Below, piece after piece: positions 380 through 25,255 of a stretch of DNA of 64,000 nucleotides. The position numbers were made by a program, and so were the translations under genes. Under the pieces are notes generated by a model that worked only from the letters and a program-made list of their open reading frames with translations, was not told the DNA's origin and searched no databases. The stretch's first letter is position 1; every line of letters begins with the position of its first letter. Origin of the DNA: a phage; sequence record PV357171.2; one strand, written 5' to 3'.

Positions 380-468
380 AATGTACATCGTTGGCAGAAT
401 GGCTATTGTAGCGGTCTGTAAATCCGTGCCCTTCGGGATTGGTGGTTCGAATCTTACACGGCCCGCCA
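380..468 (+). other. degenerate tRNA-like element
   Basis: GGTTCGAATC T-loop-like motif and 3' GCCA, but T-stem and acceptor stem do not pair. Confidence 0.2.
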
Positions 469-1489: not shown

Positions 1490-1571
1490 AACATCAGAGC
1501 AGCGTGATGTACTGCAAAGACCCAAAGTCCGGGGTGGACTTCTTGATTCAAAGGAGCAGGCACTAATTATC

Positions 1572-1693
1572 ATTCTAGCGTGGTGGAGAGGGGACACCAG
1601 CTTGCCGAGGGTAGAAGCTCGTTCGATTCGAGTGAAAGAATGGTTCTCGTAAATCCGCACAAGTGATAGCAGGTTCAAGTCCTGCCTAGATTG
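1572..1693 (+). other. tRNA-like element(s), non-canonical
   Basis: Two T-arm-like hairpins (GCTCG-TTCGATT-CGAGT and GCAGG-TTCAAGT-CCTGC) with no clean acceptor pairing or CCA. Confidence 0.2.
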
Positions 1694-1702
1694 ACTTATT
1701 AT

Positions 1703-1776: not shown

Positions 1777-2029
1777 AATTTAGGTTTCTGCTTCCTAGAG
1801 AACGGACTCCTAGATAAACAAGGCGATGAGTTTCCGGCCGGTTCTAGTCGCTGAAAATCCTCCCGACCAGGTAGGTGTAAGTAAATGAAAGTTTACTTAT
1901 TGAGTAGGTTCCGATAGACCGGCGGGTCTATTCTGGCATTTAAGAGAGGTCTCGCAAACTTCTTTGTCAGCCGTGGGGTTGGTAGCCTCCAGGTGGCCTA
2001 CACAATAAGTAAATTTATTAAAAATTCAT

Positions 2030-3012: not shown

Positions 3013-3250
3013 ATTTATATAAATTGATGAGGAGAAATCCTCATCATAGTTCACTAAGGTATTAGCTCGACCTAGGACTGGCTGCCAAAAAGCACGATCC
3101 CTACGATTTGGGAGAAGTTCTAGATTAGTCCACTAGATTCAGCGGCAACTGAATAGTGTATCGGTTTTGCGAGATGACGCGGTTCCTTCCGCTCGAAGCG
3201 AAGGTGCTGTAGTTACGCCGAGCTAATAGCCTTAGTAAACTAAGGAATTT

Positions 3251-3430: not shown

Positions 3431-4015
3431 ATGCAGTTTGTACCAATAAAAGATGCACCAGGGTATTTAGTAAATGAAACAGGGGATGTGTTATCTACAT
3501 TTACTAATAAAATCTTATCAAGATATATAGTTGATGGGTACCCTGCTGTAAAATTACAGATAAATGGTAAGCAAACTTCGGTACTTATACACCGAATTAT
3601 TTCTCATGTATTTGGGGACTTATATAATCTATTTGACCCTGAATTAGAAGTAGATCACAAGGATAGAGATAGGCTGAATCTATCTAAAGATAATCTTCAA
3701 GTTTTATCAAAAATAGAACATCAGAAGAAAACTAATAAAGATAATGGATGGTCTGATAGTAGAGTACCTTGCCCCTTATGTGGAAATCTAATGCTTCAGA
3801 GATCAGTAACATGTACAAATTGTAAGCCAAAACCTACAGGAAAGTTAATAAAACCAGAATTGTCCTTAGAAGACATAACTGAAAAGGTTTTATTAATGGG
3901 GTGGGTTAAGGCAGCTAAAGATCTAGAAGTATCAGAGTCCACTTTACGTAGACGATATACTAAACTAACCGGATTAAGCCCGAAAGTATTAACAGAACAA
4001 CGGAAAAGCAAATAG
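3431..4015 (+). CDS. HNH homing endonuclease
   Basis: 194 aa; ELEVDHKDRD HNH motif, C-terminal CPLCG...CTNC zinc-finger-like pairs; paralog of 760..1341. Confidence 0.75.
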   Translation: MQFVPIKDAPGYLVNETGDVLSTFTNKILSRYIVDGYPAVKLQINGKQTSVLIHRIISHVFGDLYNLFDPELEVDHKDRDRLNLSKDNLQVLSKIEHQKKTNKDNGWSDSRVPCPLCGNLMLQRSVTCTNCKPKPTGKLIKPELSLEDITEKVLLMGWVKAAKDLEVSESTLRRRYTKLTGLSPKVLTEQRKSK

Positions 4016-4095
4016 ACTGGTGACTAAACCCGATTGGAAATCGGTTGAGTGGTAGCAATACCGCCTTATGGGTTCAACTCCCATCTTTTCCGCCA
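4002..4095 (+). tRNA. tRNA-Ser (anticodon GGA), long variable arm
   Basis: Acceptor GGAAAAG/CTTTTCC, anticodon loop TTGGAAA, 94 nt, T-arm ATGGG-TTCAACT-CCCAT, 3' GCCA; overlaps the 3' end of the HNH CDS. Confidence 0.6.
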
Positions 4096-4107
4096 AACAA
4101 TTTATAT

Positions 4108-4202
4108 GGTAGGTCAATCCAATGGCTGGCGCTGGACTCCGACTTGAAATCGGTTGATCGTAGTGATACGGTGTAAGGGTTCGATCCCCTTACCTACCTC
4201 CA
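4108..4202 (+). tRNA. tRNA-Ser (anticodon TGA), long variable arm
   Basis: Acceptor GGTAGGT/ACCTACC, anticodon loop CTTGAAA, T-arm AAGGG-TTCGATC-CCCTT, 3' TCCA. Confidence 0.6.
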
Positions 4203-4253
4203 AATCTTGAAGTATGCCGGAATCGGTAGACGGGGCTGCCTAAAAGGTTTATA

Positions 4254-4340
4254 GGGAACATCCACTCCCTGCAACATACCTCATAAAGCGGCTGAGATAA
4301 ATGGTCTATCTCGTGAAGGTTCAAGTCCTTCTGCTTCTTG
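4254..4340 (+). other. tRNA-like element, no encoded CCA, poor acceptor pairing
   Basis: Clean T-arm GAAGG-TTCAAGT-CCTTC but the acceptor needs wobbles and a mismatch, and the 3' end is TGAT. Confidence 0.25.
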
Positions 4341-4568
4341 ATACATCTATGGCTCAAAGTGTAACGGTGCTATTTGATGCTCTTGGTAAGACTTCCCCGA
4401 CATGCGTTCGGGAGTAAGCTGCTAAGACTAGAGTAGAAGAGTTTCTGAGAGCCGCCACAATTGAAAATTCGTACTCGTCTTGAGCTGCGTGCAATAGGAG
4501 ATAACTTGATTAGTATTCTAGAACATGCTAATTGAGGATGGTTTCGCTAACCCTGCGAGTTTTCAATT

Positions 4569-4645
4569 GTGGCTATATCATAATTGGTTAATGATCCTGA
4601 TTGTGAATCAGGCCTATGTGGATTCGAATTCCACTAGCCACCCCA
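4569..4645 (+). tRNA. tRNA-His (anticodon GTG)
   Basis: Acceptor GTGGCTA/TAGCCAC, anticodon stem CCTGA/TCAGG, loop TTGTGAA, T-arm GTGGA-TTCGAAT-TCCAC, 3' CCCA. Confidence 0.75.
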
Positions 4646-4670
4646 AATTAACTTAAATAGGAAATAAAAT

Positions 4671-4871
4671 ATGGCTGATTTCTGCAAGCAATGCTCCCTT
4701 GATATGTGGGGCAGAGATACTGGTGACTTATCTGGTCTGATTACAGAAGCCGAAGTCAAAGAAGGTTATAGTGCAGTTGTGATTTGTGAAGGCTGCGGTG
4801 TTATCCGTGTAGACCACACCGGTAAGCGTTTGGAAGAACCAGTTCCAATTGCGCAAGTTCCTGTAGAATAA
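4671..4871 (+). CDS. hypothetical small protein with CxxC...CxxC pairs
   Basis: 66 aa; AGGAAA upstream of ATG; CKQC and CEGC pairs suggest a zinc ribbon. Confidence 0.5.
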   Translation: MADFCKQCSLDMWGRDTGDLSGLITEAEVKEGYSAVVICEGCGVIRVDHTGKRLEEPVPIAQVPVE

Positions 4872-5039: not shown

Positions 5040-5047
5040 AACAATAA

Positions 5048-5123
5048 GCGATTAAGCACACGGGTTGTGCCGCAGGCCTTCCAAGCCCCGCTGAGTAGGG
5101 TTCGATTCCCTCTAGCCGCTCCA
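5048..5123 (+). tRNA. tRNA, isotype uncertain (possibly Gly, anticodon TCC)
   Basis: Acceptor GCGATTA/TAGCCGC with one mismatch, T-loop TTCGATT, 3' TCCA; anticodon stem is weak. Confidence 0.5.
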
Positions 5124-6010: not shown

Positions 6011-6039
6011 TTGCCTTCTCTCTTATTTCTTGTTATAAT
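6011..6039 (+). promoter_or_regulatory. sigma70-type promoter (TTGCCT-N17-TATAAT) with conserved leader
   Basis: Same module as other early promoters: AAAAATTCATTTGC...TATAAT...ATAAATTAATGAGAGG...ATG. Confidence 0.6.
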
Positions 6040-25059: not shown

Positions 25060-25255
25060 CCTGAATGCGAATAAAAATAAGAATCATTCTCATTTAAAAA
25101 GTGGAATGCGAATGAGAATCATTATCATTTAGAAAACGGAATGAGAACTATTCAAGAAGTGAAATGATTCTCATTTAAAAAGTGGAGTGATTATCGATTA
25201 GCTAGTGAAATGCGAATGATAATGATTCGCATTTAAAAACGGAAGTGAGAAACAC
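25060..25255 (+). repeat. four degenerate tandem units sharing (C/T)CATTTA(A/G)AAA(GT/C)GGA(A/G)TG and GAATGCGAATGA cores
   Basis: Units read at about 25089, 25124, 25168 and 25228. Confidence 0.5.

Follow-up and report, generated by a model that had tools for sequence, protein, structure and literature searches.

What lies between the second tRNA-Ser gene and the tRNA-His gene in the tRNA island of the phage sequence PV357171.2? The stretch of 64,000 nt analysed here (the window) leaves about 365 nt between tRNA-Ser (4108-4201) and tRNA-His (4569-4645). A first-pass annotation, made from the letters alone, had flagged positions 4204-4568 as structured, non-coding and devoid of canonical tRNAs, and had offered tRNA pseudogenes, small stable RNAs or processing signals as explanations. 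The lack of a canonical tRNA was confirmed: default ARAGORN made no call in this interval, and a search with the Rfam covariance models for tRNAs overlooked in 4204-4568 returned none, even at E<=10. What we find are the counterparts of three RNA genes of phage T5, named RNA1, RNAI and RNAIII. We consider it likely that they are co-transcribed small stable-RNA genes embedded in a polycistronic tRNA transcript, with RNA1 serving as a scaffold, RNAI as a hairpin and RNAIII as a cassette enclosed by a stalk.

Three T5 RNA genes fill the interval

A megablast search with window positions 3990-4700 matched 435 phage records, nearly all from T5-like Salmonella and Escherichia phages at 90-99% identity, indicating that the window represents the tRNA-rich region (tRNA island) of a T5-like phage of the Demerecviridae. 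A sensitive blastn search then placed three misc_RNA genes of the T5 record AY692264 under 4204-4568. The identities extend over the full lengths of the genes, and the order tRNA-Ser, RNA1, RNAI, RNAIII, tRNA-His is the same in T5 and in the window. The features of the interval and its two borders are as follows.

4206-4350, plus strand: RNA1 (144 nt in T5), 85.5% identity to T5
4351-4457, plus strand: RNAI, 107 nt, 91.6% identity to T5; a rod-like hairpin (GGCUC...GAGCC) followed by a discriminator G and an encoded CCA
4462-4567, plus strand: RNAIII, 106 nt, 100% identity to T5; 'cassette A', a three-hairpin domain closed by a stalk
4108-4201, plus strand: the second tRNA-Ser(UGA), left neighbour, orthologue of T5 tRNAS1 according to the T5 annotation
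4569-4645, plus strand: tRNA-His(GUG), right neighbour (ARAGORN, Rfam and T5 annotation)
from 4568, plus strand: T5 tRNA-His as aligned to the T5 record, 78 nt, with the U at position -1 included

Nothing essential distinguishes the RNAs of T5 from those of the window: genes, order and lengths are the same. Judged by sequence, the interval 4204-4568 consists of the orthologues of T5 RNA1, RNAI and RNAIII, real and maintained genes whose existence is already on record, and discrete stable RNAs are predicted from this orthology to be made from it in infected cells. The 'small stable RNAs' of the first-pass annotation thus find their match in T5 misc_RNA genes, and the same holds for other stretches that it flagged, which contain T5 rna2, RNAIV and RNA2H. 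AY692264 names its misc_RNA genes without giving a function, and a search of the literature library used here turned up no paper on T5 RNA1, RNAI or RNAIII, on their function or processing, or on the T5 small-RNA transcriptome. Rfam 15, searched both at the gathering score and at E<=10, recognized no family in the interval, nor in five related loci that included other cassettes; its tRNA-clan matches fell on known tRNAs only.

The similarity to T5 is uneven. Positions 4435-4650, which take in the 3' part of RNAI and everything up to the end of tRNA-His, are 100% identical to T5, compared with only 85.5% for RNA1. This sharp mosaic boundary (4206-4434 vs. 4435-4650) is consistent with recombination or homing-driven exchange within the island.

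An inverted repeat encloses exchangeable cassettes

The first-pass annotation had described a 14-nt inverted repeat whose right arm overlaps the tRNA-His gene. The repeat and the overlap are real, but the arms as typed were 13 nt long (4455-4467/4560-4572). A repeat search extended them to 18 nt with 94% complementarity (4454-4471/4556-4573) and, once G.U pairs are admitted, they form a continuous 20-bp helix, 4454-4473/4554-4573, which we refer to as the stalk.

4454-4473, plus strand: stalk left arm, including the RNAI discriminator and CCA (4454-4457) and a CAATTG spacer
4554-4573, plus strand: stalk right arm, including a second CAATTG and tRNA-His nucleotides 1-5 (4569-4573)

The 14-nt perfect core of this repeat was reached in none of 300 shuffles (maximum 11 nt), and perfect inverted repeats of at least 12 nt with arms within 160 nt of each other number only 8 in the whole 64-kb window. 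Folding of 4336-4572 gave a z-score of -3.3.

Comparison of T5-like phages showed that the slot between the RNAI CCA and tRNA-His can be filled by any of at least four unrelated inserts, which are 33, 68, 111 or 138 nt long; RNAIII is the one of 111 nt. A stalk of 19-20 bp, reaching from the RNAI discriminator or CCA to tRNA-His nucleotides 1-5, is present with every cassette type (A, B, C and D). Its outer 11 bp are built from constant flanks (GCCA-CAATTG-A / U-CAATTG-UGGC) and its inner 9 bp from complementary ends that are specific to each cassette. Across the four types, 97% of cells in the alignment were paired, vs. 31-43% when the partners were slid, and both sides had changed in 8 of the 20 pairs; one related locus, L026, carries a compensatory change in both arms (CAATTA/TAATTG). 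In the Klebsiella phage Sealy the stalk has 19 bp of another sequence (CCAAAUUUGAGUAUCAUCG / CGAUGGUGCUCAAAUUUGG) and again runs from the RNAI CCA into U-1, G1 and G2 of tRNA-His. The persistence of the helix in all cassette types, and with a different sequence in Sealy, argues that it is an architectural constant and no accident of one sequence.

Could the repeat be a mere scar of cassette insertion or recombination at a palindrome, GCCA-CAATT-GTGGC, with duplication of CAATTG? The duplicated CAATTG flanks every cassette on its two sides and resembles the usual inter-tRNA spacer, cassettes have clearly been exchanged between close relatives, and the island contains HNH endonuclease genes. A scar would not, however, account for the cassette-specific complementary ends that lengthen the helix to 19-20 bp, for the concerted alteration of both arms in L026, or for the pairing of CCA into tRNA-His that Sealy retains despite its different outer sequence; nor would it account for the annotated ends of RNAIII, which fall inside the helix with a 2-nt stagger. 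We consider it unlikely that the repeat is a scar and nothing else; the scar and the stalk are not mutually exclusive.

An additional element was seen in Salmonella phage LVR16A (L009, 949-1070), where about 120 nt absent from both the window and T5 lie between RNA1 and RNAI. It may be another interchangeable RNA cassette.

RNA1 has the body of a tRNA and an inserted hairpin

The first-pass annotation had noticed a clean T arm (GAAGG-TTCAAGT-CCTTC), which we located at 4315-4331, and had stated that the tRNA-like element has no CCA, as is indeed the case for RNA1. It was mistaken in denying the element a proper acceptor stem: there is a 6-bp stem, in which 5 of the 6 pairs covary, plus a U.U at 1:72. 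The parts of RNA1 can be laid out as follows.

4208-4339, within 4206-4350, plus strand: cloverleaf core with a long variable arm, from the fold
4209-4214/4332-4337, plus strand: acceptor stem, supported by covariation
4217-4219/4231-4233, plus strand: D stem, 100% paired
4235-4239/4288-4292, plus strand: anticodon stem, from the alignment structure
4240-4287, plus strand: insert replacing the 7-nt anticodon loop (48 nt between the anticodon-stem strands), from the alignment
4245-4248/4278-4281 and 4253-4257/4266-4270, plus strand: the two insert helices, capped by the loop ACAUCCAC at 4258-4265
4294-4299/4307-4312, plus strand: variable arm, from the alignment structure
4315-4319/4327-4331, plus strand: T arm, invariant

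Homologues of RNA1 were gathered from three genera, from Tequintavirus, Epseptimavirus and Klebsiella Sugarlandvirus phages (about 80% identity in the last), and 23 distinct sequences were aligned. Covariation was tested on a structure that we specified, consisting of the acceptor, D and anticodon stems, the two insert helices, the variable arm and the T arm. The 34 pairs of this structure were intact in 98.2% of cells, compared with 42-52% when the partners were slid; both sides had changed in 12 of them, and the covariation score was reached by none of 500 shuffles. The insert stem occurs as AGGGA/UCCCU, UAGGA/UCCUA, GGGGA/UCCUC and GCAGA/UCUGC, around a loop, ACAUCCAC, that is near-invariant across the three genera. 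Since our first homologue scan had demanded this loop, the scan was repeated with a loop-free pattern as a guard against circularity; it returned the identical set plus one T5 record bearing ACAUCCGC. The two pattern scans of viral contigs for RNA1 hit T5-like genomes only, apart from chance coding matches in L035 and L037.

The remnant of the anticodon loop, on the 3' side of the insert hairpin, varies: it reads CUUAAAA in T5, the 8-nt CUCAUAAA in the window, and CCGAAAAC in Epseptimavirus and the Klebsiella phages. A 7-nt anticodon loop with a conserved anticodon is not present in RNA1. Together, the covarying helices, the conserved insert loop and the variable anticodon remnant suggest that RNA1 is a maintained tRNA-shaped RNA that no longer decodes, with selection acting on the tRNA body as well as on the inserted hairpin. 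Removal of the insert in silico turns T5 RNA1 into a clean 91-nt tRNA-Leu(UAA), with U1.U72 and no CCA. We sought a host origin for this body in 5,426 E. coli genomes, and blastn gave no match to the insert-deleted RNA1. When we looked by eye for a partner of the ACAUCCAC loop, GUGGAU in tRNA-His was the sole candidate; a hexamer is too short, and it was dropped.

A different explanation is that the interval consists of decaying tRNA pseudogenes and spacer DNA that have no function at the RNA level, the inverted repeat being incidental. RNA1 does look degenerate in several respects. It is followed by UUGAUACAUCUAU rather than CCA, which the neighbouring tRNA genes encode, it has a U discriminator and the U1.U72 apposition, and the window copy has an aberrant 8-nt 'anticodon loop'. 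It also fails as a canonical tRNA, with no Rfam RF00005 match at or above 29 bits, none even at E<=10, and no default ARAGORN call; and a neighbouring element, at 389-468, truly is a remnant. Decay is nevertheless hard to reconcile with compensatory changes that keep every RNA1 helix in three genera, and the helices of rna2 too, with a hairpin loop that stays near-invariant while its stem changes, with the retention of the stalk around four unrelated cassettes and in Sealy, or with the T5 record, which annotates the products as RNAs. We regard it as very unlikely. The pseudogene label proposed by the first-pass annotation thus finds no support for 4204-4342 or for 1572-1693, where helices are kept by compensatory changes, and holds for 380-468 only.

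RNA1 might also be read as a decoding tRNA with a removable intron, either tRNA-Leu(UAA), as in the record of phage JLBYU40, which annotates a 134-nt tRNA-Leu(taa) at the RNA1 position, or tRNA-Phe(AAA), as called by ARAGORN when introns are allowed (-i; 4208-4339 with a 41-nt 'intron'). The T5 copy, with its intact CUUAAAA loop after the insert, fits such a reading. The would-be anticodon differs by lineage, however, and the loop of the 'intron' is the most conserved part of the RNA, the opposite of the expected pattern. Moreover, the insert, of about 40 nt, resembles no intron family in Rfam at E<=10, the group I core included, and the product would have no CCA, a U.U at 1:72 and a U discriminator. 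E. coli is not known to possess a splicing endonuclease that would remove an insert of this kind. An intron-containing tRNA is highly improbable.

RNAI is a hairpin with an encoded CCA

Copies of RNAI from Tequintavirus and Epseptimavirus have their first 20 and last 22 nt in common and unrelated interiors, for a total of 107 or 100 nt, and consensus folds show both interior variants as rods on the same base. The Sealy homologue has a compensatory terminal stem (GGCCC/GGGCC) and ends in A-CCA. It sits behind tRNA-Ser with the usual AACAAT spacer between them, a placement that points to its occupying a tRNA-type slot. In the T5 annotation the 5' end of RNAI abuts the 3' end of RNA1. The minimal substrate classically described for RNase P is a stem with NCCA attached.

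At the other end of the interval, our scan listed 4543-4559, followed by TTTTCAATTG, as terminator-like, and the hairpin and U-run at 4543-4568 could in principle form an intrinsic terminator or attenuator that controls read-through into tRNA-His. Yet a stem of 5 bp, 3 of them G-C, is weak, 12 such sites turned up where 5.0 were expected, the U-run forms the right arm of the stalk and is not left single-stranded in the minimum-energy fold, and other cassettes dispense with the hairpin while retaining the stalk. A role in termination is extremely improbable. It is barely conceivable that the conservation comes from small protein-coding genes, annotated as coding sequences (CDSs) for a 'hypothetical protein' in many GenBank records: most relatives do have open reading frames (ORFs) of 34-67 aa starting ATGGCTCAAAG or ATGGTCTATC, and several records carry CDSs here, but ORF length and product follow the cassette (38, 34, 52, 59 and 67 aa), some relatives have no ORF, the common N-terminus is the conserved 5' end of RNAI, and the substitutions follow the pattern of a paired RNA.

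'Hypothetical protein' CDSs lie over RNAI, RNAIII or tRNA-His in L006 (1167-1328), L010 (944-1123) and L012 (917-1021 and 1129-1260). These are almost certainly mis-annotated RNA genes.

A proposed processing pathway

Two further T5 RNA genes in the island have stalks comparable to that of RNAIII.

1902-2004, plus strand: RNAIV orthologue, 97% identity to T5; stalk of about 21 bp, at about 1889-1910/1995-2016
3060-3231, plus strand: RNA2H orthologue, 98% identity to T5, just upstream of tRNA-Ala; stalk of about 22 bp, 3047-3069/3219-3242

The fold of RNA2H has a z-score of -4.2. In the T5 sequence, the nucleotide annotated as the 5' end of RNAIII has its partner two positions short of the annotated 3' end, which leaves a 2-nt 3' overhang; the annotated ends of RNA2H on its stalk likewise leave a 2-nt 3' overhang. 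A 2-nt 3' stagger within a helix of about two turns is how RNase III characteristically cuts. Our observations concern orthology, RNA structures and their covariation, the exchange of cassettes and the way the annotated ends lie; from them we infer which nucleases would act, in what order they would cut and what the released RNAs might do.

In our proposal, the island would be transcribed as long precursors, from which RNase P and 3' trimming would release the tRNAs, RNA1 and RNAI. A single RNase P cut could produce both the 5' end of RNAI and the 3' end of RNA1. Promoter-like sites were found at 2030-2058 and 6011-6039, and only weak matches between RNA2H and tRNA-His. The inverted-repeat stalk probably directs excision of the RNAs: the presence of stalks of about 20-22 bp on RNAIII, RNA2H and RNAIV, together with the 2-nt 3' overhangs of annotated ends, points to host RNase III as the enzyme most likely to cut them with a 2-nt stagger and release RNAIII, RNAIV and RNA2H. 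The same cut would free the CCA end of RNAI and the 5' acceptor strand of tRNA-His, both of which would otherwise be sequestered in the 20-bp helix. The 'processing signals' envisaged by the first-pass annotation are thus plausible as far as the inverted repeat is concerned, given a conserved stalk of about 20 bp with RNase III-type 2-nt 3' overhangs at the T5-annotated ends.

RNA1 would act as a natural tRNA scaffold. The anticodon loop of a former tRNA-Leu(UAA) would have been replaced by a payload hairpin that carries the activity, while selection kept the acceptor, D, variable and T arms; the tRNA body would provide recognition by RNase P and stability.

The tRNA-His genes have no encoded G at position -1: in the T5-like phages U(-1) stands with C73 on the acceptor stem GUGGCUA/UAGCCAC (window 4568-4645), and in the Klebsiella phage Sealy U(-1) stands with U73 (L013, 229-306). 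The HisRS of E. coli relies on G(-1) as one of its major identity elements.

Several known systems resemble parts of this proposal. The species 1 and species 2 RNAs of phage T4 (rnaC and rnaD) are small stable RNAs that are co-transcribed and co-processed with the T4 tRNAs. The T4 tRNA cluster also includes a homing endonuclease gene (PMC2330249). The likeness to the T5-type RNAs is one of description, with no sequence relationship expected, and RNA1 and rna2 differ in consisting of a tRNA body plus an insert. Stalks processed by RNase III are known from rRNA operons and from the early-transcript sites of phage T7. As there, a helix of about 20 bp is formed by sequences flanking the released RNA, and here the T5-annotated ends of RNAIII and RNA2H are staggered by 2 nt with 3' overhangs; unlike the rRNA and T7 stalks, the outer pairs of the phage stalk join the CCA end of one RNA to the acceptor 5' strand of the next tRNA, and its cleavage by RNase III is putative. 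RNA1 and rna2 share their layout with an engineered tRNA scaffold that retains the acceptor, D and T arms but has its anticodon stem-loop exchanged for an insert; in E. coli, host factors recognize these chimeras, which undergo precise processing and are shielded from nucleases (PMC3753655). The laboratory design encodes a CCA, whereas the natural RNA1 and rna2 do not. YrlA (a Y-RNA-like RNA) and the tRNA-like domain of tmRNA are similar in fusing a tRNA-shaped module to a non-tRNA module; RNA1 differs from them in having both its 5' and 3' ends in the acceptor stem and a short capped hairpin as its extra module, and it has no Rfam match at E<=10.

Several points weigh against the idea of functional RNAs released from a tRNA transcript. 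The argument from the overhangs holds only if the ends of the T5 RNAs were mapped and not predicted, and the overhang of RNAIV is 1 nt, not 2. RNAI shows few compensatory changes, and the interior of RNAIII, with copies 96-100% identical, is too conserved for covariation to be assessed. Insertion into the palindrome GCCA-CAATT-GTGGC could in itself have produced the outer 11 bp of the stalk, which are constant flanks. Our search by eye yielded no target or partner for the ACAUCCAC loop. Finally, T5 can do without its tRNA-rich region in the laboratory, as seen with deletion mutants (PMC11464382), which would suit pseudogenes and means that any function of these RNAs must be conditional.

Other RNAs, remnants and tRNA genes of the island

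Two further elements were among those that the first-pass annotation had called similar tRNA-like remnants.

1571-1695, plus strand: orthologue of T5 rna2, 89.6% identity; tRNA-like, its anticodon arm enlarged by an insert of about 55 nt
389-468, plus strand: hybrid pseudo-tRNA, 17.9 bits with the Rfam tRNA model; no matching acceptor 5' strand

The stretch at 1572-1693 corresponds to T5 rna2, a maintained tRNA-like RNA and not a remnant, whose D and T stems have undergone compensatory changes; it repeats the design of RNA1 on a different tRNA body. Its insert contains, at 1617-1633, a hairpin resembling a second T arm (GCUCG-UUCGAUU-CGAGU), a hint that one tRNA body here harbours a fragment of another tRNA.

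The description was apt for 380-468, a true hybrid pseudo-tRNA and, as far as sequence can tell, the only true tRNA remnant among the flagged intervals. In the element at 389-468, the 5' portion carries a GUA (Tyr-type) anticodon; at the T loop it passes into what is, in most T5-like phages, the 3' end of the tRNA-Asn gene. Only window positions 435/444-565 match other phages, where they are the end of tRNA-Asn, and the whole element is found in only 6 records (e.g. Gostya9). The element has the appearance of a scar left by deletion or recombination between tRNA genes.

ARAGORN detected 15 tRNA genes within the first 6.5 kb of the window, 14 of which were confirmed by Rfam, and HNH-type and small ORFs are interspersed among them. 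Standard tools undercount the tRNAs of the island, as two cases illustrate. The tRNA-Ser(UGA) at 4108-4201 is missed by default ARAGORN and picked up in Rfam by the tRNA-Sec model only, at 37.6 bits, below the gathering score. Window positions 5047-5120, annotated as tRNA-Gly UCC at the orthologous T5 position, are also missed by default ARAGORN and score a sub-threshold 23.3 bits with the tRNA-Sec model.

Compared with T5, the window has an additional tRNA-Gly, as well as about 125 further nt, between rna2 and RNAIV. These non-coding nucleotides, at 1777-1900 between tRNA-Gly(GCC) and RNAIV, are absent in T5 st0 and fold into 2-3 hairpins. A 210-nt query that includes the tRNA-Gly (1696-1905) was covered over at least 80% of its length in 155 phage records, mostly at more than 95% identity; the records listed annotate the tRNA-Gly only.

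In the Klebsiella phages (L003, L004 and L013, 1285-1900), about 600 nt around the RNA1 homologue are without credible genes. This stretch holds several strong hairpins (e.g. GUGGGGCUAAUCAAUCCCCAC, directly 3' of RNA1) and has a promoter-like end, and more unannotated RNAs are likely there for these reasons. Elsewhere in the window, two perfect inverted repeats of 13-14 nt, AATGAGAATCATT and GAATCATTATCATT, overlap each other within about 120 nt (25111-25228) and are among the longest in the window.

Implications for T5-like phages

The RNA genes described here are not novel as such, being already known as stable RNA genes of T5. What our analysis adds is structures supported by covariation, the idea that RNA1 and rna2 are naturally occurring tRNA scaffolds, a slot for exchangeable cassettes, and a conserved stalk of the RNase III type linking RNAI, RNAIII and tRNA-His. 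This stalk would physically couple the maturation of the three. The RNAs are annotated in one T5 record and absent from Rfam; in the records of relatives that we examined they are either unannotated or overlaid by spurious 'hypothetical protein' CDSs, and annotators have reason to drop CDS calls at these positions.

The tRNA-rich region of T5 is an anti-defence locus: its tRNA-Lys counteracts PARIS (PMC11464382) and its tRNA-Tyr counteracts Retron-Eco7 (PMC11555353). Our data suggest that selection maintains the structure of the non-tRNA RNAs in this locus. A conditional, possibly anti-defence, role for the released RNAs may be suspected on three grounds: the payload loop is conserved, cassettes turn over among near-identical phages, and the RNAs are encoded in a locus that counters tRNA-cleaving defences.

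A more speculative extension, doubtful as a whole, would treat the island as a source of modular, scaffolded small RNAs. RNA1 and rna2 would display payload hairpins, and RNase III would release interchangeable cassettes from the slot between RNAI and tRNA-His. The payloads might be decoys or inhibitors of host defences that target tRNAs or sense RNA, in parallel with the tRNAs that neutralize PARIS and Retron-Eco7, and the turnover of cassettes among near-identical phages would reflect an arms race with these defences. The reach of the stalk into tRNA-His could further allow RNase III, rather than RNase P, to set the U(-1) end of this tRNA. Anti-defence effectors of this kind would, if real, be of high interest, and the RNAs of the island are in any case concrete and cheaply testable candidates for new phage RNA functions.

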